Positions 12,618-64,000 of a DNA stretch of 64,000 bases are shown piece after piece. A program made the position numbers and the translations under genes. The stretch lies in assembly GCA_019038645.1 (NCBI GenBank), contig JAHOYT010000054.1, positions 4,365 to 68,364 of the forward strand, written 5' to 3'. The notes below the pieces were generated by a model. That model worked only from the letters and a program-made list of their open reading frames with translations, was not told where the DNA came from and did no database searches. The DNA comes from Bacteroidales bacterium. Its GTDB lineage: Bacteria; Bacteroidota; Bacteroidia; Bacteroidales; UBA12077. Each line of letters starts with the position of its first letter. The stretch's first letter is position 1.

Positions 12618-12641
12618 CGATATGTTTATTTTTGCATATCC
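12618..12641. promoter_or_regulatory. ModE-like operator overlapping the wtpA -7 box
   Basis: CGATATGT-N8-GCATATCC; TATTTTTG -7 box at 12627-12634 lies inside it; same motif at 38477-38500. Confidence 0.7.
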
Positions 12642-12663: not shown

Positions 12664-13617
12664 ATGAAACGCATTAAATTATTAACCATTTTTCTCACAG
12701 CTTTAATCCTTTTTAGCTGTAACAATAAAAATTCTGAAAACAATCAACTTATTATTTTCCATGCAGGAAGCCTTTCTGTTCCTTTCAAACAAATGAAAGC
12801 AGAATTTGAAAAAGAAAACCCCGGCGTTAAAATTTTACTGGAATCGGCAGGAAGTGTTGCAAGTGCCAGAAAAATTACGGATTTAAATAAAGATTGTGAT
12901 ATTATGGCATCCGCAGATTATACTATTATTGATGAAATGTTAATTCCGGATTACACCAGCTGGAACATAAAATTTGCCAGTAACGAAATGGCAATCGTAT
13001 ATCATGATGCATCAAAATACTCCGATGAAATAAATGCAGAAAACTGGCATGAAATATTATTACGCGATGATGTATTATTCGGACGCTCAGATCCAAACTC
13101 CGATCCATGCGGATACCGTGCTATATTAACTTCTCAGTTATCGGAACAGTTTTATAATCAGGATGGTTTAACGAACAAAATCATACAAAAAAATCAGGAA
13201 TATATTCGTCCCAAAGAGGTTGATTTATTGGCGCTGTTAGAATCGAATACAATTGATTACTTATTCTTATATCGTTCGGTAGCACAACAACACGAATTAA
13301 AATATGTTATTCTTCCTGATTCAGTTAACCTGAAAAATCCTGAATTAAGAGAATTCTATAAAAATGCGAAAGTAGATATTACAGGTAAAACTCCGGGAAC
13401 CACAATAACAAAAATCGGTCAGCCAATGGTTTATGGCATTACAATTTTAGATAATGCGCCAAATAAAGAACTGGCCTTAAAATTCACCGATTTTATTTTA
13501 TCAAAACAAGGAGGCGCAAAAATTATGGAAGAAAACGGCCAACCATCTATGATTCCTTCGTATTCCGAAACTTATATTTCAATTCCTGAGACACTTAAAC
13601 AATATGCCAAAAATTAG
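12664..13617 (+). CDS. wtpA: Tungstate/molybdate ABC transporter substrate-binding lipoprotein WtpA
   Basis: Lipobox LFSC; FHAGSL, AGSVASARK, SADY, SDPNSDPCGYR, RPKEVDL, YRSVAQQH motifs of WtpA. Confidence 0.92.
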   Translation: MKRIKLLTIFLTALILFSCNNKNSENNQLIIFHAGSLSVPFKQMKAEFEKENPGVKILLESAGSVASARKITDLNKDCDIMASADYTIIDEMLIPDYTSWNIKFASNEMAIVYHDASKYSDEINAENWHEILLRDDVLFGRSDPNSDPCGYRAILTSQLSEQFYNQDGLTNKIIQKNQEYIRPKEVDLLALLESNTIDYLFLYRSVAQQHELKYVILPDSVNLKNPELREFYKNAKVDITGKTPGTTITKIGQPMVYGITILDNAPNKELALKFTDFILSKQGGAKIMEENGQPSMIPSYSETYISIPETLKQYAKN

Positions 13618-13647
13618 CTGTTAGCTTTAGTAATTGGCTTTTAGCAA
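13614..13647. repeat. Degenerate heptamer tandem repeat
   Basis: TTAGCTG TTAGCT TTAGTAA TTGGCTT TTAGCAA. Confidence 0.55.
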
Positions 13648-13666
13648 AAAAAAAGAATCTCAAAAA

Positions 13667-14911
13667 ATGAAATACATATATTTATTTTTACTAATCAGTA
13701 TAATAACAACAAGCATAAAAGCGCAATTAAGAATTGATGCAGAATATCGCCCGCGATTTGAACTGAGAGATGGTTACAGTACTTTAAAAGCAGAAGATTC
13801 TGAGCCTGCATATTTTGTTACTCAACGTACCAGACTAAATTTAAATCACACATATAATAATGTTACATCAAAATTGTCGGTTCAGGATTATCGTGTTTGG
13901 GGAGACTCAAAATTAAAAGCTGATGATCCGGGAGTAAGTGTTTTTGAAGCTTATTTTAAATTGAATTTAAACGATTATTGGGCAATAACTGCTGGTCGTC
14001 AGGCAATTGATATTGATAACAAACGACTTTTTTCGGCAGCAAACTGGAATCAGGTTAGTACTTCGCACGATGGTGTAACTCTTGATTTCATGAATGAATT
14101 GTTCAATTTTAAAATGATTACAGCCTTTAATCAGGCAGAAGTTTCTAATTTTGGAACCGATTATTCTGCTCAGATCAGCAATTACAAATTTTTAAACGTA
14201 ATCTGGTTAGAGAAAAAAATCAAAAAACTGACTCTTGCCAATTTAACCATAACCGATGCTTATCAAAAAGTTGGTACAAGCAATACCGATTATTACAGAT
14301 TTACGACAGGTGCGATAATCAAATATAAGAAAACAGCAAATGATATTCAGATAAGAGGATTTTATCAGACGGGGAAGAATAAGACAGGACAGGATGTAAG
14401 TGCGTATTATACAAGTGCAAGTTATGCACGTAAATTTGGATCGGTTCTGAGTTTAACCGGAGGGTTCGAATATATGTCGGGTAACAATTTAACCGATATA
14501 ACCAATGAGAAAGATAATGCATTTGATATTTTATATGGAGCAAAACATTGGTTTAATGGAATGATGGATTATTTTAGCACTCCAAATACAACTCATAATG
14601 CGGGTTTAGTTGATGGATATATAAAAGTTGATTTCACAAAAATTGAGAATTGGAAATTATCTACACATTATCATTATTTAGCTTTTGCTAATAATTATAT
14701 TCACGAAGGCGAAAAGCAAGATAAATTTTTAGCAAACGAAATCGACTTGGTTGGAACCTGGAAGGTTAATGATATTATAAATTTACAGTTAGGATACGGA
14801 ATGTTATTTGGAGGAAAAACGCTGGAATATGTTAAAGGAGTTGAAGGTGATGGATTACAACACTACTTTTTTGCAATGATAACAGTAAAACCAACATTCT
14901 TTAAAAATTAA
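13667..14911 (+). CDS. Alginate-export-family outer-membrane beta-barrel porin
   Basis: ATG 13667 gives a signal peptide; EYRPRFELRDGY, QRTRL, QDYRVWG, GRQ, NWNQ..HD and H.F.GMMDYF motifs; stop overlaps the wtpB start (TAATG). Confidence 0.8.
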   Translation: MKYIYLFLLISIITTSIKAQLRIDAEYRPRFELRDGYSTLKAEDSEPAYFVTQRTRLNLNHTYNNVTSKLSVQDYRVWGDSKLKADDPGVSVFEAYFKLNLNDYWAITAGRQAIDIDNKRLFSAANWNQVSTSHDGVTLDFMNELFNFKMITAFNQAEVSNFGTDYSAQISNYKFLNVIWLEKKIKKLTLANLTITDAYQKVGTSNTDYYRFTTGAIIKYKKTANDIQIRGFYQTGKNKTGQDVSAYYTSASYARKFGSVLSLTGGFEYMSGNNLTDITNEKDNAFDILYGAKHWFNGMMDYFSTPNTTHNAGLVDGYIKVDFTKIENWKLSTHYHYLAFANNYIHEGEKQDKFLANEIDLVGTWKVNDIINLQLGYGMLFGGKTLEYVKGVEGDGLQHYFFAMITVKPTFFKN

Positions 14912-15699
14912 TGATAAATAACCGAAATACACCGATACTATTCGTACTATTTGGCGGACTAATTTTACTTTTTATTATTAGTCCGTTGCTTAGCATGTTT
15001 TTGGCAACAACTCCGCTGCAATTATTCGAAACATCTAAAGATCCTGAAGTAGTTAATAGTATCTGGCTAACGCTAAGAGTTTCTTTTTTAGCCACTTTGT
15101 TTTTTGCTATTGGTGCTATTCCGCTGGCCTATTTTTTGGCAAGAACAAAATTCAAATTTAAAAAACTTGTAAATGGTATTATTGATTTACCCATTGTAAT
15201 ACCACACTCAGCTGCCGGAATTGCTATTCTTGGATTTATTTCAAGAGATTCTGTTTTAGGAAAAGTAGCATCTTCGCTTGGGCTTAATTTTGTTGGTCAT
15301 CCTGTTGGAATAGCGTTAGCAATGGCATTTGTGAGTATCCCGTTTTTAATAAATGCTGCCCGCGATGGATTTGAGAGTGTTCCAATAAAACTTGAAAAAA
15401 CAGCATTAAACCTTGGGGCATCGCCCGTAAGAGTATTTTTTACTATATCCTTTCCCCTGGCATGGAAAAATATATTGTCGGGATTAATAATGATGTTTGC
15501 CCGTGGATTAAGCGAATTTGGAGCTGTTGTTATTGTTGCATATCACCCAATGATAACACCTGTACTTATTTTTGAGAGATTTGGTGCATTCGGGTTAAAA
15601 TATGCAAGGCCTGTCTCAGTTGTATTTATTATTGTATGTCTGGTATTCTTTATTTTTTTAAGAACCTTATCGAAAGAAAAACACACAAATAATGCTTAA
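14911..15699 (+). CDS. wtpB: Tungstate ABC transporter permease WtpB
   Basis: DLPIVIPHSAAG, EAA-like loop LEKTALNLGAS, FARGLSEFGA. Confidence 0.9.
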   Translation: MINNRNTPILFVLFGGLILLFIISPLLSMFLATTPLQLFETSKDPEVVNSIWLTLRVSFLATLFFAIGAIPLAYFLARTKFKFKKLVNGIIDLPIVIPHSAAGIAILGFISRDSVLGKVASSLGLNFVGHPVGIALAMAFVSIPFLINAARDGFESVPIKLEKTALNLGASPVRVFFTISFPLAWKNILSGLIMMFARGLSEFGAVVIVAYHPMITPVLIFERFGAFGLKYARPVSVVFIIVCLVFFIFLRTLSKEKHTNNA

Positions 15700-16732
15700 G
15701 CTAAAAGATATATCAATTAAGCTCGGGGATTTTCAACTGAGAAAAATAAATCTTGAGTTGAATAAAGGAGATTATTATGTTCTTTTAGGTAAATCGGGTG
15801 TAGGAAAAACTGTTTTGCTGGAAATTATTGCCGGACTTATTAAACCCGATTCAGGTAATGTTTTTATGAATAATACAGAAATAACTAATGAAAAAATACA
15901 AAACAGAAAAGTAGGAATTGTTTTTCAGGACTATTCAGTTTTCCCGCATTTAAATGTAAAACAAAATATCGCATACTCTTTAAAAGGCAAGAAGATTACA
16001 AATAGTAAAAAAGAAGTATTAATAAATCAATATGCCGGATTAACCAATATTACTCACTTGTTAGATCGAAATACTCAAAATTTATCGGGTGGGGAATTAC
16101 AGCGTGTAGCATTGGCCCGTATGTTGGTTTCAAAACCTGAATGCCTGCTTTTAGATGAACCATTAGCTTCCCTTGATATACAATTGAAAGGCGGTTTAAG
16201 AAATTTATTACGACAAATAAATCAAAGTGGAGTAACTATTTTACATGTAACGCACGATTATGAAGAAGCAATTGCTTTATCGGATAAAGTTGCTGTTATA
16301 CACGAAGGTGAAATAGTTCAGAGAGGATCAACAAAAGAAGTATTCCAAAAACCTGCCAATGAGTTTGTTGCCAATTTTACCGGAATAAAGAATTTTTTTC
16401 TTGCAGATTTTTCCCCAATTAATAATGCAAAAATTAATGGTACACTGGAAATAAACGTTTCAAATAAAGATCAGATAAAAAACGGGAAAATAATTATTCG
16501 TGGTGAGGAAATTATCTTATCCAATGAAAAAATGGAATCAAGTGCAACTAATAATTTCAAAGGAAAGATAAAACAAATTATCCCGTACTTAACCAATCAT
16601 GAAATAATTGTTGATATTGGAATTGATTTAACAGTTGTAATATCTGAAGAATCATTACAAAAATTTAAATTCAGTGAAAATTCTGAAGTTTGGGTTTCCT
16701 TTAAATCTACTGCAATAAAGATTATTCCGTAG
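15692..16732 (+). CDS. wtpC: Tungstate ABC transporter ATPase WtpC with C-terminal TOBE domain
   Basis: GKSGVGKT, LSGGE, LLLDEP, HVTHD, SSATNNFKG TOBE. Confidence 0.88.
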   Translation: MLKLKDISIKLGDFQLRKINLELNKGDYYVLLGKSGVGKTVLLEIIAGLIKPDSGNVFMNNTEITNEKIQNRKVGIVFQDYSVFPHLNVKQNIAYSLKGKKITNSKKEVLINQYAGLTNITHLLDRNTQNLSGGELQRVALARMLVSKPECLLLDEPLASLDIQLKGGLRNLLRQINQSGVTILHVTHDYEEAIALSDKVAVIHEGEIVQRGSTKEVFQKPANEFVANFTGIKNFFLADFSPINNAKINGTLEINVSNKDQIKNGKIIIRGEEIILSNEKMESSATNNFKGKIKQIIPYLTNHEIIVDIGIDLTVVISEESLQKFKFSENSEVWVSFKSTAIKIIP

Positions 16733-18196: not shown

Positions 18197-18556
18197 ATGG
18201 CTTTTAAATTACCGGAATTAACATATAAGTACAATGCATTAGAGCCTTACATCGATGCACAAACAATGGAAATACATCACACTAAGCATCATGCAGGGTA
18301 TACTAACAATTTGAATAATGCTATTAAAGGTACAGAATTAGATAACAAATCCATAGAGGATATAGTAAAGGATATTTCTAAATATCCTGTTGCAGTCAGG
18401 AATAATGGAGGCGGATTATATAATCACAAGTTATTCCGTGAAATAATGACGCCAAATGGTGGTGGTGAACCAACCGGAGATTTATCTCCGGTTTTTTTGT
18501 TATGGCAGGATTCATTTTCTGGTCATTTATCTTTAAATTTGTTTAAAATAAATTAA
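18197..18556 (+). pseudogene. sodA: Truncated Mn-type superoxide dismutase (N-terminal domain only)
   Basis: [23 protein letters not shown] matches SOD to PTGDL, then runs into a terminator; the DxWEH ligand domain is absent. Confidence 0.8.
18472..18498 (+). terminator. Terminator hairpin at the sodA truncation point
   Basis: AACCGGAGAT-TT-ATCTCCGGTT plus T run. Confidence 0.75.
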
Positions 18557-18574
18557 CAACCTAAAATAGATCTC

Positions 18575-19150
18575 ATGGCTTTCGAATTACCTAACCTACC
18601 CTATGCATATGATGCTTTAGAACCGTTTATTTCAAAACAAACACTGGAATTTCACCACGACAAGCACCATGCGGCTTATGTAAATAATCTAAATAATTTA
18701 ATAAAAGGCACGGAGTTTGAAAATGCCAATATCGTTGATATTATTACCAAAGCTAAAGGTGGTATTTTTAACAATGCAGCTCAGGTTTGGAATCATACAT
18801 TTTATTTTGATCAGTTTGGGAAAAACAAAATTGAAAAATTGAGTGGTCAGTTATTGGTAGCAATTAATGCCAGCTTTGGATCATTTGACGAGTTCAAGGA
18901 GAAATTTTCTGTAGCAGCAAAAACTCTGTTTGGATCAGGTTGGGCATGGTTGGTTAAAAAACCAAATGGAAGCCTGGAAATTATTCAGACTTCAAATGCA
19001 ACAAACCCATTAACTGAAGGTTTGATCCCAATTTTAACCTGCGATGTTTGGGAGCACGCTTATTATCTTGATTATCAGAATAAACGTCCTGATTATGTAG
19101 GGAACTTCTGGAGCCTGATTGATTGGGAAATTGTTTCGGGTCGATACTAA
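18575..19150 (+). CDS. sodB: Superoxide dismutase [Fe]
   Basis: HHDKHH, FNNAAQVWNH (Fe-type Gln), FGSGWAW, DVWEHAYY. Confidence 0.95.
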   Translation: MAFELPNLPYAYDALEPFISKQTLEFHHDKHHAAYVNNLNNLIKGTEFENANIVDIITKAKGGIFNNAAQVWNHTFYFDQFGKNKIEKLSGQLLVAINASFGSFDEFKEKFSVAAKTLFGSGWAWLVKKPNGSLEIIQTSNATNPLTEGLIPILTCDVWEHAYYLDYQNKRPDYVGNFWSLIDWEIVSGRY

Positions 19151-19272
19151 CAGAGAGTATTTAAAATGATTTTAAATTGACTAATCAGGTAATTGATTAC
19201 CTAATTATTGTGTTGAATTTTATATATTCGGGGTCATTAAATATTAAAAGTAATTACATAAAACAATAAATT

Positions 19273-19848
19273 ATGAGCTCTTTAAAAGGAACACGTACAG
19301 AACAGAACTTATTAAAATCATTTGCCGGCGAATCACAGGCAAAAAACAGGTATGAGTTTTTTGCTAAAGTGGCAAAAAAAGAAGGTTACGAACAAATTGC
19401 TGAATTCTTCAATGAAACTGCATTACAAGAACAACAACATGCTAAAACTTTTTTCAAATTCCTTGAAGGAGGAGTGGTTGAAATAACAGCTTCATATCCT
19501 GCAGGAGTTATCGGTACAACAGCAGAAAATTTAAAAGCTGCAGCTGAGGGAGAAAATGAAGAATGGACAGATCTTTATCCTGAATTTGCAAGAATAGCTG
19601 AAGAGGAAGGATTTAAAAAAATTGCTATTGCTTACAAATTAATTGCTAAAGTAGAAGCAGAGCATGAGAAAAGATATTTAAAACTTCTGGAGAATATCGA
19701 AAGCGGAAAAGTTTTTGCACGTGAAGAAAAAGTGCGTTGGGTTTGTCGTAAGTGCGGACATGTTCACGAAGGCACAAAAGCTTTAAAGAATTGTCCTGTT
19801 TGTGCTCATCCGGAAGCATATTTCGAAATTGAGAAAACAAATTATTAA
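19273..19848 (+). CDS. rbr: Rubrerythrin
   Basis: FAGESQA, ExxH di-iron motifs, C-terminal CRKC/CPVC rubredoxin site. Confidence 0.96.
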   Translation: MSSLKGTRTEQNLLKSFAGESQAKNRYEFFAKVAKKEGYEQIAEFFNETALQEQQHAKTFFKFLEGGVVEITASYPAGVIGTTAENLKAAAEGENEEWTDLYPEFARIAEEEGFKKIAIAYKLIAKVEAEHEKRYLKLLENIESGKVFAREEKVRWVCRKCGHVHEGTKALKNCPVCAHPEAYFEIEKTNY

Positions 19849-38476: not shown

Positions 38477-38500
38477 CGATATGCACAATATAACATATTG
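38477..38500. promoter_or_regulatory. ModE-like operator between aor and the DUF364-thiF-thiS operon
   Basis: CGATATGC-N8-ACATATTG, same architecture as 12618-12641. Confidence 0.7.
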
Positions 38501-38589: not shown

Positions 38590-40743
38590 ATGGATATTCA
38601 AAAAATGAAAGACGCTCACAAGCTTTTAAAAGAGTGGAAATATGAGCTTCGCCCAATCGATAAAGGGTATAATGATCGTACATTGTATGTGAATGTTGGT
38701 TCAAATGAAATTAAGGAGAAACCTGTTCCACAACAAATGAAAGAAAAATTTATTGGTGGAAAAGGATATGGCTTAAGATTATTATGGGATGCTACTGCAC
38801 CTGAAACAAAATGGAACGACCCTGAAAATGAAATCATTATTGCTGGTGGTCCTATTTGCGGTATAACTCAATATTCTGGTACAGGTAAAGCTATTGTAGT
38901 ATCTGTATCTCCGCAAACTAATTCCATTATGGATTCAAACGTAGGTGGTCATTTTGGTCCGTTTTCTAAGTTTGCCGGATTTGATGCTGTTGAGATTCAG
39001 GGAAAATCTGAAAAAGAAGTTATAGTATTTATTGATGGAGTTAATGGTAAAGTTGAGATTTTAGAAGCTCCAGAAGAACCAATTGATAGTCATGTTTTGG
39101 GTGAAGTATTACACGAAATGTATTCTGATGATGAAAAGGACAGAAGAAATGTTTCTGTTGTTTCAGCCGGAACTGCTGCTGATCATTCATTAATTGGAAT
39201 GTTAAACTTTACTTTCTGGGATAATAAACGTAAACTGGTTCGTTTAAAACAAGCTGGTCGTGGTGGAATCGGAACTGTTTTCAGAGATAAAAAAATTAAA
39301 GCATTAGTTTGTAAAATACCTGGTGTAAAGGGTAACTTGAATAATGTTGTTGATATGGAAGCTATCATGGAACGTGGTAAGCGATTCAACAAAGAAATGC
39401 GTGAGCTTGACGATTCGCAATGCGAAATGAAGAGTAAAGGTACAGCTCACCTTACTGGAATAATGAATGATTATGATCTACTTCCGGTAAATAATTTTAA
39501 GTTTGGAAATCATCCGGATGCTCATAAAATTAACGGAGATGTTTGGAAATCATATTTTACACAAGGTGTTCCTGATGGATGTTGGATTGGTTGTAATATG
39601 TCATGTGCAAAAGGTGTTGATAATTACTTATTAAGAACCGGACCATATGCCGGAGATAAAGTAATTGTTGATGGACCTGAATATGAAACAACTTCATCGA
39701 ATGGTTCAATAATGGGTATCTTTAATCCTGATTTTACTATTGAAACTAACTTTTATTGTGATACTTATGGTATTTGTACTATTACTTTTGGTACAATCAT
39801 GGGATTTGTAATGGAATGTTACGAAGCTGGAATTTTGAACGAAGAACGTACTGGTGGATTAAAATTGAACTTCGGTAATGCAGATGATGCAATGGAGGTG
39901 TTACACCAAATGGCAGGTGGCGAAGGATTCGGTAAGATTGCAGGATTAGGTGTTCGTAAAATGAAACAACTGTTTGCTGAAAAAGGATGGGGTGATGCTC
40001 AATTCATGCAAGACATTGGAATGGAAAACAAAGGGTTGGAATATTCTCAATATGTTTCTAAAGAATCATTAGCTCAGCAGGGTGGTTATGCCATGACTAA
40101 TAAAGGTCCACAGCACGACGAAGCCTGGTTAATTTTCATGGATATGGTAAACAACCAGATTCCTACTTTCGAGAAAAAAGCAGAAGCATTGCATTATTTC
40201 CCAATGTTCCGTACCTGGTTTGGTTTAACAGGATTATGTAAATTGCCATGGAACGACGTTGAGCCTGTAAATAATGCAGAAGCTGATGAGCCAGCAAAAG
40301 TACCGGAGCATGTTGACAATTATGTAACTATTTTCAAAGCTGTTACAGGATTAGAATTCGATAAAGAAGAAATGATTACTCAATCGGAAAGAGTATATAA
40401 CTTTCAGCGTATTTTTAATATTCGTAGAGGTTATGGTGTACGGAAAGATGATGCTCAGCCATATCGTGCTGCAGGTCCTGTTACAATAGAAGAATACGAA
40501 TCTAAAGCAGAGCATTATGACAAACAGCTGAAAGAATTAATCGGTGTTGATCCTGCCGGGAAATCTGTTGAGGAAAAGAATGCGATTACAAGAAAATACA
40601 GAGAAGAACAATACGAAAAACTACTTGATGCAGTTTATGCGCGTCGTGGTTGGACATCTAATGGTGTTCCAAAAATTGAACACTTAAAGAATATAGGTAT
40701 GGATCTTCCGGAATTAATCGAAGTAATAAAAGATAAGCAATAG
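38590..40743 (+). CDS. aor: Aldehyde:ferredoxin oxidoreductase family (tungsten oxidoreductase)
   Basis: FIGGKG, DSNVGG, AGRGGIG...KKIKA, CWIGCNMSC, GPEYET, CDTYG, GLCKLPW, YARRGW...G.P. Confidence 0.92.
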   Translation: MDIQKMKDAHKLLKEWKYELRPIDKGYNDRTLYVNVGSNEIKEKPVPQQMKEKFIGGKGYGLRLLWDATAPETKWNDPENEIIIAGGPICGITQYSGTGKAIVVSVSPQTNSIMDSNVGGHFGPFSKFAGFDAVEIQGKSEKEVIVFIDGVNGKVEILEAPEEPIDSHVLGEVLHEMYSDDEKDRRNVSVVSAGTAADHSLIGMLNFTFWDNKRKLVRLKQAGRGGIGTVFRDKKIKALVCKIPGVKGNLNNVVDMEAIMERGKRFNKEMRELDDSQCEMKSKGTAHLTGIMNDYDLLPVNNFKFGNHPDAHKINGDVWKSYFTQGVPDGCWIGCNMSCAKGVDNYLLRTGPYAGDKVIVDGPEYETTSSNGSIMGIFNPDFTIETNFYCDTYGICTITFGTIMGFVMECYEAGILNEERTGGLKLNFGNADDAMEVLHQMAGGEGFGKIAGLGVRKMKQLFAEKGWGDAQFMQDIGMENKGLEYSQYVSKESLAQQGGYAMTNKGPQHDEAWLIFMDMVNNQIPTFEKKAEALHYFPMFRTWFGLTGLCKLPWNDVEPVNNAEADEPAKVPEHVDNYVTIFKAVTGLEFDKEEMITQSERVYNFQRIFNIRRGYGVRKDDAQPYRAAGPVTIEEYESKAEHYDKQLKELIGVDPAGKSVEEKNAITRKYREEQYEKLLDAVYARRGWTSNGVPKIEHLKNIGMDLPELIEVIKDKQ

Positions 40744-59370: not shown

Positions 59371-59838
59371 ATGATTTCTATGAACAATAATTTAGTTGAT
59401 GTTTTTTCTTCCTTTGATGGGAAAGAAGAAGAACTTATTCCGATACTTCAGAAAGTACAAAATGCATTGGGTTTTTTATCAGATGATTCGATGGAAGAGA
59501 TTGCGCGATTTGCTCGCGTACCCATGAGTAAGGTTTTTGGAGTTGCTACATTCTATGCTCAATTTAGATTTACTCCTAAAGGTGAAAAACACATTATGTT
59601 GTGCCGGGGAACTGCATGTCATGTGAAAGGAGCTCCAAGGATTCAAGAGGAGATTGAAAATCATTTAGGCATTAAAGAAGGCGAAACATCCAAAGATTTA
59701 AAACATTCGATGGAAAATGTGGCGTGCATAGGAGCCTGTAGTTTAGCACCTTGCATTTTGGTGAATGAAACTGTTGAAGCTAATCTTACGCCTCAGAAAG
59801 TTGAAAAATTATTCTCATCAAAGGGGAAAAATAAATGA
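59371..59838 (+). CDS. NuoE/HydC-like [2Fe-2S] subunit
   Basis: GVATFYAQF, CRGTAC, CIGAC thioredoxin-like 2Fe-2S motifs. Confidence 0.93.
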   Translation: MISMNNNLVDVFSSFDGKEEELIPILQKVQNALGFLSDDSMEEIARFARVPMSKVFGVATFYAQFRFTPKGEKHIMLCRGTACHVKGAPRIQEEIENHLGIKEGETSKDLKHSMENVACIGACSLAPCILVNETVEANLTPQKVEKLFSSKGKNK

Positions 59839-59842
59839 TCTT

Positions 59843-61723
59843 ATGGATATAAATAAACTTATTAAAGAAGCCTCGGCCGAATGGACCGATCTACTTAATG
59901 GTCCTGTTCCTGCATTTTTAGTGGGGAATGCTACTTGTGGAAGATCAGCTGGTGCTGGCAATATAATTGAAAAGTTGAAATCTGAAATTTCAGCAGGAAG
60001 TCATGAGTGCAGGGTGCTTGAAGTTGGTTGCATTGGTATGTGTTTTATGGAACCCATTGTTTCTGTTTATAGACCGGGTTATCCGCTTATTGTATACGGT
60101 AATGTGGAGGAGAAAGATGTTGCTAAAATGACAGAAGCTTTTCTTGAAAAAGGAGAAATAATTAATTATAATATAATTGGTGTTGTAGGCCCAAATGAAC
60201 AACTAGATAAGCCCGATTTATTCAATATTCCTGTAATGGAACCCCAAAAAAGGCTTGTTCTTAATAATTGTGGATTGATTGATCCTACAAACTTAAATCA
60301 TTATATAGCAAATAAAGGTTATATAGGACTCCAGAAAGCTCTTCAACTTTCTTCGCAAGATGTAATTGAAAGACTGAAAGAATCAGGATTAAGAGGTCGA
60401 GGTGGGGCAGGATTTCCAACTTGGCGTAAATGGCAGTTTTGCAAAGATCAGGATAATGACACAAAATATTTAATTTGTAATGCCGATGAAGGTGATCCTG
60501 GTGCTTTTATGAATCGTTCTTTATTAGAAGGTGATCCTCATTCCTTAATTGAAGGTATGGTAATTGCCGGACATGCAATAGGGGCGTCATCAGGTTATAT
60601 CTATTGTAGAGCCGAATATCCTTTGGCTCTTGAACGTTTGAGATTAGCTATATTACAAGCAGAACAAAAAAATCTTTTGGGAAATGATATAATGGGTATG
60701 GGTATTAATTTTAAATTAAAGGTGAAGGAAGGAGCAGGTGCTTTTGTTTGCGGTGAAGAAACAGCACTAATAGCATCAATAGAAGGTGAAAGAGGAATGC
60801 CAAGACCAAGACCTCCCTTTCCGGCAATTTCTGGATTGTGGGAAAACCCAACTATAATTAACAATGTAGAAACCTTAGTTTCAGCAGCAAGAATACTACA
60901 AAACGAACCGGGTTGGTTCTCTAAATATGGAACGAAAGAAAGCAAAGGAACAAAAACATTTGCCTTAGTAGGTAAGATAAAAAACACAGGTTTAATTGAA
61001 GTTCCAATGGGAACTACTCTTAGAGAAATTATTTATGATATTGGTGGTGGTGTTGATAATGGGAAAAAGCTTAAAGCTGTGCAAACTGGCGGTCCCTCAG
61101 GAGGTTGTGTACCTGCAAGTATGATTGACATTCCGGTTGATTATGAGTCACTTGCTGAGGCTGGTACTATTATGGGATCTGGTGGATTAGTGGTGATGGA
61201 TGAGGATAATTGCATGGTAGACGTTGCTAAATTCTTTATTGATTTTGCTCATAAAGAATCGTGTGGTGAGTGTGCTCCATGTAGATTAGGAACTAAGCAA
61301 ATGCTTGCTATACTTGAAGATATTGTTGCCGGTAAAGGTACAATGGAAGATTTAGATTTATTAGAGGATTTGGGTAAAGGTATTATGAAAGGTTCATTAT
61401 GTGGATTAGGTCAAACAGCTCCAAATCCGGTATTAACTACGCTTAGATACTTCAAAGATGAGTATATAGAACATATTCAAAATAAGCGATGTCCTGCAAA
61501 AGTATGCAGAGATCTTAAATATTACGAAATTCTTAAAGATAAGTGTACGGGTTGTCATATCTGTTTTAAAGCTTGCTCGGTTGCTGCTATTAGTGGTAAT
61601 CCTAAAGAACTGCATAAAATAGATCAGGATCTTTGTATAAAGTGCGGAATGTGTTTGGATAAATGTCCAACAAAATTCAATGCAATTGAAGTTTATCCTG
61701 GAAATAAAGTAATGGAGGATTAA
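59843..61723 (+). CDS. NuoF/HydB-like FMN/NADH-binding subunit with C-terminal 2x[4Fe-4S]
   Basis: GLRGRGGAGFPT, NADEGDPGAFM, GAFVCGEETAL, GGPSGG, ESCGECAPCR, CTGCHIC and CIKCGMC; ATG 59843 lies 4 nt after the upstream stop. Confidence 0.93.
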   Translation: MDINKLIKEASAEWTDLLNGPVPAFLVGNATCGRSAGAGNIIEKLKSEISAGSHECRVLEVGCIGMCFMEPIVSVYRPGYPLIVYGNVEEKDVAKMTEAFLEKGEIINYNIIGVVGPNEQLDKPDLFNIPVMEPQKRLVLNNCGLIDPTNLNHYIANKGYIGLQKALQLSSQDVIERLKESGLRGRGGAGFPTWRKWQFCKDQDNDTKYLICNADEGDPGAFMNRSLLEGDPHSLIEGMVIAGHAIGASSGYIYCRAEYPLALERLRLAILQAEQKNLLGNDIMGMGINFKLKVKEGAGAFVCGEETALIASIEGERGMPRPRPPFPAISGLWENPTIINNVETLVSAARILQNEPGWFSKYGTKESKGTKTFALVGKIKNTGLIEVPMGTTLREIIYDIGGGVDNGKKLKAVQTGGPSGGCVPASMIDIPVDYESLAEAGTIMGSGGLVVMDEDNCMVDVAKFFIDFAHKESCGECAPCRLGTKQMLAILEDIVAGKGTMEDLDLLEDLGKGIMKGSLCGLGQTAPNPVLTTLRYFKDEYIEHIQNKRCPAKVCRDLKYYEILKDKCTGCHICFKACSVAAISGNPKELHKIDQDLCIKCGMCLDKCPTKFNAIEVYPGNKVMED

Positions 61724-61726
61724 AAT

Positions 61727-64000
61727 ATGAATATGGTAAATATTAATATAAATGGTAAAAAATTTGCAGTTAATATAGATCAAACAATTCTAGAAGCTGC
61801 TATTGAGAATAATATTTATATTCCTGCATTATGTCATCATCCCGATCTTATTCCATCAGGGAATTGCAGAATGTGCATGGTGGAAATTGAAGGTCGAAGA
61901 GGACAGATTATTGCTTGTAAAACTCCTGTTGAGGAAGGAATGATTGTAAGAACCGAGAGTCAGGATATATCATTAATTCGTCAAACAACACTTGAGCTTA
62001 TACATGTAAATCATACTCAGGATTGTACAAATTGTTCGCAAAATAGTTCTTGTCAATTACAAGAAGTTACTGCATATGTTGGCGTTGATGAGGAGAGATT
62101 AAGCAGATTAAGACGAACAAAACAGAAAATTGGGAAAGATGATTCGAATCCTTTTTTTACGCTTGATCATGACAAATGTATTATGTGTGGAATATGTGTT
62201 CGTACATGCGACGAAGTCCAAGGCGTTAATGCCCTCGATTATGGTTATAGAGGTTTTGATACGATAATAAGCACTTTTAGTAACAGAACAATTAAAGAAT
62301 CTGTTTGTGAATCATGTGGCGAATGTGTTGTAAGATGTCCTGTTGGAGCATTAACATTCAAAGAAACACGCAAACCTACCACAGAAGTTAAAACAGTTTG
62401 TACTTATTGTGGTGTTGGTTGCAATATGTATCTCGGTGTTAGAGGTAACGAAATTGTTAGTGCTCGTGGAGACAGAGATAGTATTGTAAATAAAGGTCGC
62501 TTATGTGTAAAAGGAAGATTTGGTTTTGAATTTGTTAATCACGATGAGAGACTAAAAGTTCCTCTTATTAAAAAGAACGGCACCTTTGTAGAATCTACAT
62601 GGGAAGAAGCTTTTTCAATTATTGTTGAGAAATTTTCGTCTCTTGAGAGCAAACAGTTTGCTTCTCTTACTTCTGCTAAAGTTACAAATGAAGATAATTA
62701 TGTAATACAAAAGTTTGCAAGAGCTGTTATGGGCACGAACAATATAGATCATTGTGCTCGACTTTGTCATGCTCCTACAGTTGCTGGTTTGGTTCAAAGT
62801 CTTGGAAGTGGTGCAATGACAAATTCTATTGATGAATTTACCGATTCTCAAACTATATTCTCAATTGGGTCTAATACAACAGCTGCTCATCCAATTATCG
62901 GGCTTCATTTTAAGGAGGCTAAAAGAAAGGGTGCGAAAATTATTGTGGCTAATCCTAAAGAAATTGATCTGTGTAGATTTGCTGATGTATTTATGCAGCA
63001 ATACCCTGGAACCGACGTAGTTTTATTAATGGGTATGATGAAAGTAATATTAGATGAAAATCTTCAGGATGAAGAGTTTATTAAAGCGCGAACGGAAGGT
63101 TATGATGAATTTGTTGACTCGCTAGTTGATTTTGATTTGGAAACAACTGAAAAAATAACGGGTGTTCCAAAGGAAAAGATAATCGAAGCAGCACGTATTT
63201 ACGCTACAAACAAACCATCATCGCTGGTTTACGCAATGGGAATTACCCAGCATTCTCATGGAACTGATAATGTACTCGCAACCAGTAATCTTGCAATGTT
63301 AACAGGAAATATTGGTAAAGAGTCTGCAGGGATAAATCCTCTTAGAGGACAGAATAATGTGCAAGGTGCTTGTGATATGGGTGGTTTGCCAGATGTATAT
63401 CCCGGATACCAGAAGGTTGATAAGCCCTGGGTAAAAGAAAAATTTGAAGAGCACTGGGAAACAAAACTGGATCCGAAAGCCGGACTTACACATACAGAGA
63501 TATTTGATGAAATTGAGAAAGGAAATATAAAGGCACTGTACCAAGTTGGTGAAAATCCAATCCTTAGTGAGGCAGATTCTAATCACGTTAAAAGAGCATT
63601 AGATAATTTAGATTTCTTTGTTGTGCAGGATATTTTTATGACTGAGTCGTCCAGATATGCTGATATAGTTCTTCCGGCAGCTTCATTTGCTGAAAAGGAT
63701 GGTACTTTTACAAACACCGAACGCCGGGTTCAGAGAGTAAGAAAAGCAGTTACATCTCCCGGTGATGCTAAATGTGATTGGTGGATTGCCAGTGAAATTG
63801 CCAGACGAATGGGCGCTAAGGGATTTGATTATAATTCGCCTTCGGATATAATGAATGAGATTAATAAGGTTGCTCCTATTTATGGTGGAATAACCTTCGA
63901 AAGAATTGAAAATGAAGGCTTACAGTGGCCATGCCCGACAACAGATCATCCAGGGACTAAGTTCTTACATAGTGAGAAATTCACAAGACCTAATGGACTT
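61727..64000 (+). CDS. fdhF: Formate dehydrogenase alpha subunit (Mo/W-bisPGD, Cys ligand) with N-terminal HydA/NuoG-like FeS domains; truncated by window edge
   Basis: Absent from the ORF track because it runs off the window; read manually: IPALC..CRMC, HTQDCTNCSQNSSC, CIMCGICVRTC, CESCGEC, CTYCGVGC, NNIDHCARLCH (TGT at 62765), LRGQNNVQG, in frame to the last base. Confidence 0.93.
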   Translation, partial: MNMVNININGKKFAVNIDQTILEAAIENNIYIPALCHHPDLIPSGNCRMCMVEIEGRRGQIIACKTPVEEGMIVRTESQDISLIRQTTLELIHVNHTQDCTNCSQNSSCQLQEVTAYVGVDEERLSRLRRTKQKIGKDDSNPFFTLDHDKCIMCGICVRTCDEVQGVNALDYGYRGFDTIISTFSNRTIKESVCESCGECVVRCPVGALTFKETRKPTTEVKTVCTYCGVGCNMYLGVRGNEIVSARGDRDSIVNKGRLCVKGRFGFEFVNHDERLKVPLIKKNGTFVESTWEEAFSIIVEKFSSLESKQFASLTSAKVTNEDNYVIQKFARAVMGTNNIDHCARLCHAPTVAGLVQSLGSGAMTNSIDEFTDSQTIFSIGSNTTAAHPIIGLHFKEAKRKGAKIIVANPKEIDLCRFADVFMQQYPGTDVVLLMGMMKVILDENLQDEEFIKARTEGYDEFVDSLVDFDLETTEKITGVPKEKIIEAARIYATNKPSSLVYAMGITQHSHGTDNVLATSNLAMLTGNIGKESAGINPLRGQNNVQGACDMGGLPDVYPGYQKVDKPWVKEKFEEHWETKLDPKAGLTHTEIFDEIEKGNIKALYQVGENPILSEADSNHVKRALDNLDFFVVQDIFMTESSRYADIVLPAASFAEKDGTFTNTERRVQRVRKAVTSPGDAKCDWWIASEIARRMGAKGFDYNSPSDIMNEINKVAPIYGGITFERIENEGLQWPCPTTDHPGTKFLHSEKFTRPNGL

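Follow-up and report, generated by a model that had tools for sequence, protein, structure and literature searches.

An outer-membrane barrel gene lies inside a wtp operon

The window analysed here, a stretch of 64,000 nucleotides from a Bacteroidales genome (GCA_019038645.1), carries on its + strand four genes in the order wtpA, a β-barrel gene of the PF13372 (alginate-export) family, wtpB and wtpC. The barrel gene, which an earlier reading of the DNA (the original prediction) proposed as a dedicated outer-membrane entry route for tungstate or molybdate, is the subject of this report. It spans 13667..14911 and encodes 414 residues from an ATG start, with a signal-like N-terminal helix; an in-frame TTG lies upstream at 13634. 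Its TAA stop codon (14909–14911) shares a base with the wtpB ATG (14911–14913) in the sequence TAATG, and both the gene order and this overlap are confirmed as originally described.

The first gene of the operon, wtpA (12664..13617), encodes a 317-residue tungstate/molybdate-binding lipoprotein above the cut-offs of NF003196 and TIGR03730; its scores on the two NCBIfam WtpA models are 391.7 (cut-off 355) and 337.5 (cut-off 242.75). It aligns to solved archaeal WtpA/ModA proteins with E values of 1e-70 to 1e-77 and conserves D147, within a DPC motif, and E185; which Asp of the motif serves as ligand in octahedral tungsten coordination is an assignment that we assume. Downstream of the barrel are a WtpB-like ATP-binding cassette (ABC) permease (14911..15699, 262 residues) and a WtpC-like ABC ATPase with a C-terminal TOBE domain (15692..16732, 346 residues; PF00005, PF03459). 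Both fall below the NCBIfam cut-offs (273.7 against 340 for WtpB, NF040839; 344.8 against 440 for WtpC, NF040840), with WtpB and WtpC still their best-matching models. No PBP_like_2 protein (PstS/TupA-type) was matched in this 96.9% complete genome, and the closest named records to the locus are metagenome-assembled genomes of Bacteroidales.

The WtpABC system of Pyrococcus furiosus shares with this locus the WtpA family and the Asp/Glu carboxylate positions; Archaea lack an outer membrane, whereas the present operon has a gene for a predicted outer-membrane protein between wtpA and wtpB. P. furiosus WtpA is described as preferring tungsten over molybdenum ~650-fold, dependent on one Asp (PMC10221389), while Wtp is elsewhere called a dual molybdenum/tungsten system with only a slight tungsten preference (PMC13144720); molybdenum uptake has been reviewed (PMC7759655). 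The label ‘archaeal-type’ given to this operon in the original prediction is right as to family but wrong as to rarity: WtpA is present in 127 of 401 genomes drawn evenly from the order, making the tungsten regulon widespread in Bacteroidales. An even class-wide draw contained WtpA in only 4 of 401 genomes, and genus and order draws were used instead.

The barrel is predicted to have an AlgE-like fold and a basic lumen

PF13372 is the only Pfam family matched by the barrel (45.6 bits, gathering cut-off 25.2); no NCBIfam family was matched, and a sequence search of the PDB with the barrel returned no real match (one at E 0.15). An AlphaFold2 model based on a 110-sequence alignment (mean predicted local distance difference test score 93.8) shows an N-terminal helix and 18 long strands. 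Foldseek ranked AlgE of Pseudomonas aeruginosa (PF13372, TC 1.B.13) first with this model, at E 3.9e-15 and 11% identity, and VIA-align gave a Z score of 31.2 for AlgE (root-mean-square deviation 3.1, 346 aligned residues), ~28 for the Occ channels (OccK/OccD) and 14.9 for OprP. The predicted strand number is that described for the AEP family (PMC4827864), and the electropositive pore reported for AlgE (PMC4118822) may have its counterpart in the predicted basic lumen residues of the barrel.

Taken at face value, the Pfam name would make the barrel an exporter of alginate or another polysaccharide, as would its score above the PF13372 cut-off and the rank of AlgE as best structural match; a more distant relative (L284) also precedes a flippase-like gene, labelled by eye. 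We regard export as very improbable. Identity to AlgE is just 11–12%, and the neighbours of the barrel are wtpA, wtpB and wtpC. The synthase and AlgK-like partner that accompany a functional AlgE are absent from the operon, as is any further polysaccharide gene, and the clusters of genes recurring beside related barrels contain none either. Placement in an import operon means that direction and substrate likely differ from those of AlgE. In fold the barrel belongs to PF13372, yet it is no functional AlgE and would work instead in the way that OprP works with Pst, though from a different barrel family.

OprP, the arginine-ladder phosphate porin of P. aeruginosa, is an analogue in being a basic-lined outer-membrane channel that serves a periplasmic oxyanion-binding ABC system, Pst. 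It has 16 strands, compared with the 18 predicted here, and its pore selectivity has been shown.

The barrel is linked to wtp genes across families

Of the other 36 genus genomes, 15 contain an orthologue (63% identity or more), in every case immediately upstream of wtpB, so the linkage exceeds chance; at two genus loci a lipoprotein gene stands between wtpA and the barrel. In the order draw, the barrel was detected at E 1e-66 or better in 41 of 401 genomes; its best 30 loci comprise 13 adjoining wtp, 11 adjoining pst-like genes (labelled by similarity to PstA/PstB/PstS-like open reading frames (ORFs), rather than by individual scans) and six in other contexts. A search of genome contigs with the single protein had yielded only two loci.

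A FastTree phylogeny, from which barrels shorter than 380 residues and the duplicate loci L011, L012, L036 and L042 were omitted, as they were from the residue comparisons below, places the barrel in a 58-member clade (support 0.993, 35–100% identity). Synteny of this clade with oxyanion transporters, proposed as a check, is borne out, with 29 of the 30 members of known context linked to wtp. In 26 of these 29 loci the gap between barrel and wtpB is −14 to +13 nucleotides, and distances among the barrels rise with those among the WtpB proteins (Spearman 0.83, 27 loci, permutation p 0.0005). Two further wtp-linked barrels lie outside the clade, one (L278) among phosphate-linked and the other (L018) among chemotaxis-linked barrels, which points to repeated recruitment of barrels to wtp. 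The arrangement of a barrel within wtp is real and conserved. The 58-member clade itself sits among phosphate-linked barrels; since deeper nodes have moderate support and the outgroup is arbitrary, a phosphate-linked ancestry is a lead rather than a tested order of events.

Related barrels adjoin other oxyanion genes

To place the family more broadly, we collected barrels by searching the genus, the phylum and metagenomes, grouped their neighbouring genes into clusters and scanned cluster representatives. Of 140 full-length barrels placed, 24 adjoin wtp, 21 pst, 63 nitrogen-oxide genes (nirK, nrfAH/ccs, narK/nrt/nirBD and NO-related genes), eight chemotaxis genes and 24 other genes, in a tally that holds duplicates and close kin and was seeded by the query, and so is not an unbiased census. 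Polysaccharide synthases are absent from the recurrent neighbour clusters. The proximity of related barrels to phosphate, nitrate and nitrite genes gives the family the look of channels for oxyanion entry, not of alginate exporters. It suggests oxyanion import channels behind many of the genes that carry the annotation ‘alginate export’ in Bacteroidota. A described member, BT1414 of Bacteroides thetaiotaomicron, is an ‘alginate export family’ gene down-regulated along with nrfAH (PMC10434189), a nitrite context unlike the wtp context here.

Sister barrels occur across Bacteroidota in pst operons or beside nirK, nrfAH and narK/nrt/nirBD (L041–L049, L082, L085, L095; L080–L178). This genome also encodes a paralogous barrel (G000 C91:2748-4037, 38% identity) inside a chemotaxis cluster with genes for a methyl-accepting chemotaxis protein and cheW, as seen likewise at L037–L040 and L044; the chemotaxis-cluster barrels possibly admit a chemoeffector anion.

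Predicted lumen arginines are shared with phosphate-linked barrels

The arginine-rich motifs noted originally (EYRPRFELR, QRTRL, YRVW and GRQ) are indeed present in the translation. Strand alternation, used in place of coordinates and unreliable for strands 8–9, assigns R28, R30, R34, R54, R56, R211 and R230 to the inside, with 18 Lys/Arg against 12 Asp/Glu facing inward, and the lumen is accordingly predicted to be arginine-lined. As a sign of tungstate specificity, however, the arginine-rich strands do not hold up. The arginines cited are near-invariant across all clades, and R28, R30, R34, R54, R56, R76, R111 and R120 are also kept in phosphate-, chemotaxis- and nitrogen-oxide-linked clades, while K84, D197, R211 and R230 are common to the wtp clade and the nearest phosphate-linked group. 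We had considered K84, D197 and R230 as tungstate-specific pore residues and dropped them, as the closer phosphate-linked relatives have them too.

These comparisons bear on whether the pore itself prefers tungstate, or tungstate and molybdate, over phosphate and sulfate, as OprP prefers phosphate. Such selectivity would fit the long-lived wtp-linked clade, the slightly higher mean number of inward Lys/Arg in that clade (19.0, against 16.7 for pst-linked and 14.7 for nitrogen-oxide-linked barrels) and I288, T308 and K390, the only positions that set it apart from both phosphate groups. Yet every conserved basic residue of the lumen is also found in the nearest phosphate-linked group, the apparently wtp-specific signal at R230, K84 and D197 vanished when closer relatives linked to phosphate genes entered the comparison, and neither L278 nor L018, the barrels recruited separately, has converged on the clade's residues at I288 or T308. 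We therefore hold an intrinsically selective pore to be unlikely. The pore probably takes tetrahedral oxyanions in general, among them anions similar to tungstate such as phosphate, and was probably inherited from phosphate-linked ancestors.

A ModE-type operator is shared with tungstoenzyme genes

Upstream of wtpA lies a ModE-type palindrome, CGATATG-N10-CATATC(C/G) (12618..12641), the top match of a genome scan, which overlaps what may be a Bacteroidota −7 promoter element (12627–12634), presumed from a consensus that we take as given. Its core and spacing fit the Escherichia coli ModE consensus CGNTAT-N12-ATANCG (PMC545781). By the criterion of at least 11 matches to the 14 consensus positions, the operator precedes wtpA in 25 of 35 loci, and in L025 it bears a symmetric double change. 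A matrix built from those sites detects it, at 15 bits or more, ahead of wtpA in 27 of 78 regions taken from other genera, compared with none of 390 shuffles; this includes five of the seven barrel loci from other families. A sigma-70 promoter and terminator scan, uninformative for Bacteroidota, returned 27 promoter-like sites where 24.0 were expected, and found no terminator.

Within this genome, the five best of 52 operator matches above 11 bits precede wtpA, two loci of the aldehyde:ferredoxin oxidoreductase (AOR/WOR) family, a modE-like gene and the gene divergent from it; the sixth-best (18.6 bits) lies within a coding region. One AOR/WOR locus is in the window, where the second-best match (22.0 bits, 38477..38500) stands before an AOR/WOR gene on the + strand (38590..40743, 717 residues; PF01314 320 bits; NF007354 E 4e-28, under cut-off) and a divergent DUF/ThiF-like pair, and the other is a second operon on contig C40. 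The AOR/WOR gene is likely a tungsten consumer in the regulon of the wtp operator. Five AFOR_C genes are present in this genome, and at least one such gene occurs in 36 of 37 genus genomes. Also encoded here is a separate modABC, which lies beside xanthine-dehydrogenase-like genes and has no barrel; none of the 40 best operator matches listed lies upstream of modA.

The ModE-like proteins here, putative regulators, have 119–125 residues (125 in this genome); that of L018 consists of the helix-turn-helix (HTH) domain only, scoring 86.5 bits on TIGR00637, below cut-off, and lacks a molybdate-binding domain, which has been noted also for Desulfovibrio (PMC545781). Control of the wtp operon through a ModE-type operator common to AOR/WOR genes appears likely.

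The modE-like gene of this genome (C36:19948-20325), likewise HTH-only, heads a moeA/moaA/moaC/MOSC-like cluster with an operator ahead of it. A further operator, at C36:20872, precedes a divergent aldehyde-dehydrogenase-like gene, which we take to be PruA-like. Similar genes turn up repeatedly in the vicinity of wtp loci (cluster k1, with 12 ORFs among 80 loci).

Barrel-less relatives often encode a TonB-dependent module

Genus members without the barrel often have, in or beside the wtp operon, a module in which a TonB-dependent receptor is accompanied by three lipoproteins, the third of ~357 residues. In the example at L054:7121-12159 the first two lipoproteins have ~190 and ~300 residues and the receptor ~773; the module also occurs in L051, L053, L056, L058–L060, L062, L064, L068 and 24 of L179–L258. 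Among 37 genus genomes, 13 have the barrel only, 13 the receptor only, three both and eight neither (Fisher p 0.018, for kin that are not independent). For other genera we took 80 of the 128 WtpA matches listed, with ~11 kb around each, some cut by contig ends; these contain seven barrels and 24 receptor–lipoprotein pairs, none with both and 49 with neither. The module is a candidate active outer-membrane uptake system for tungsten, commoner in the order than the barrel. No orthologue of it, or of its ~357-residue lipoprotein, was found in this genome.

An alternative is that the channel takes a tungsten-bearing organic species, such as a chelate or pterin cofactor, or a carboxylate or aldehyde substrate of the co-regulated WOR enzymes, in place of free tungstate. 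The fold is common to carboxylate channels (OccK/OccD, Z ~28), AlgE is described as binding citrate (PMC4118822), and the module combines a TonB-dependent receptor with a lipoprotein resembling molybdopterin-oxidoreductase proteins. We nevertheless think an organic substrate quite improbable, given that the inner-membrane partner is a free-oxyanion transporter, that sister clades adjoin phosphate and nitrate/nitrite genes and that this genome has neither the module nor its lipoprotein.

The ~357-residue lipoprotein (L054:11089-12159) is found in 30 of the 80 wtpA loci, often without the receptor; it has no Pfam or NCBIfam match, and its nearest named Atlas cluster is the PF00174 molybdopterin-oxidoreductase family (score 0.90). 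A gene like TiaS-N/methanogenesis marker 11 and a small membrane protein recur between wtpA/modE and the TonB module (L017:154-1390, L183, L194, L199, L210, L228, L255).

The barrel as a probable passive channel for tungstate supply

Taken together, we favour, with reasonable but incomplete confidence, the reading that the barrel is a passive oxyanion-preferring channel which raises the periplasmic supply of tungstate when the operon is on, with WtpA discriminating between tungsten and molybdenum. Tungstate, and with it molybdate, would diffuse through the predicted arginine-lined pore into the periplasm, where WtpA would select the metal and hand the anion to WtpBC, and the operon would be switched through the ModE-type operator shared with the AOR/WOR tungstoenzyme genes of the cell. 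Co-transcription of the barrel with its neighbours, its regulation and its transport are steps that we infer. The outer-membrane entry route originally proposed for tungstate or molybdate is supported by gene order that is conserved in several families, by barrels having become associated with wtp three separate times, by the operator shared with AOR/WOR genes and by the alternative outer-membrane module of sister genomes; its description as ‘dedicated’ holds for operon and regulation but not for pore chemistry. The channel is best read as dedicated to tungsten through gene position and regulation.

Several observations weigh against this reading. Only seven of the 80 wtpA loci from other genera, spanning six families, have the barrel, and the 49 loci with neither barrel nor TonB module imply that cells do without the channel or use unlinked porins in its place. 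In that sample the exclusion between barrel and module falls short of significance (p 0.096), and three genus genomes carry both. L070, a member of the clade at 65% identity, lacks a wtp gene both in the 450 bases available downstream and as its upstream gene, the correlation of barrel with WtpB distances is also expected under simple vertical descent, and the inward-facing residues are assigned by the alternation rule given above. Finally, an oxyanion role leaves unexplained the eight family members in chemotaxis clusters, the paralogue on C91 among them. The barrel of L070 (L070:1200-2471) lies downstream of an rlmF-like gene.

The many wtpA loci without a linked outer-membrane protein of either kind, and family members in contexts as unrelated as chemotaxis clusters, could instead mean that the barrel acts as a small porin without selectivity, or as a co-expressed passenger, and adds little to tungsten uptake; small oxyanions can, moreover, pass general porins. 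We consider a passenger role improbable in view of the tight-gap retention of the barrel between wtpA and wtpB in several families, down to 38% identity, the two separate recruitments and the family-wide bias toward oxyanion operons, and retain the passive oxyanion channel as the preferred explanation.

A broader and more tentative proposal, plausible but one that we would not yet expect to hold in full, is that the ‘alginate export’ barrels of Bacteroidota are mislabelled entry channels for oxyanions (nitrite/nitrate, phosphate, tungstate), and that anaerobic Bacteroidales have two interchangeable, metal-regulated tungsten routes, namely the present channel, derived from phosphate-linked barrels, and an active TonB-dependent receptor with surface lipoproteins.

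In the open full-text literature we found no porin in a wtp operon, tungstate channel or TonB-dependent tungsten system described, subscription papers and supplements, which may bear on this, lying outside that coverage. Of outer-membrane steps for a group-6 oxyanion, the only one described in the literature covered is the T6SS–ModA–IcmP (type VI secretion) pathway of P. aeruginosa (PMC8602904, PMC11734730), which uses a secreted binding protein and a receptor for molybdate, with proteins unrelated to the barrel. The locus offers a concrete candidate for how tungstate crosses the outer membrane, with the phosphate- and nitrite-linked sister barrels as natural controls and the TonB module as a second candidate route.

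Other genes in the window

Two tandem ORFs that we take to be superoxide-dismutase-like, the first apparently truncated at 119 residues, lie with a presumably rubrerythrin-like gene after them at 18197–19848. At 59371–64000, in a group that runs past the end of the window, NuoE/NuoF-like genes (labelled by eye) are followed by a gene for an 891-residue protein with a PF00384 molybdopterin-oxidoreductase match, possibly forming a molybdenum- or tungsten-dependent bifurcating enzyme.

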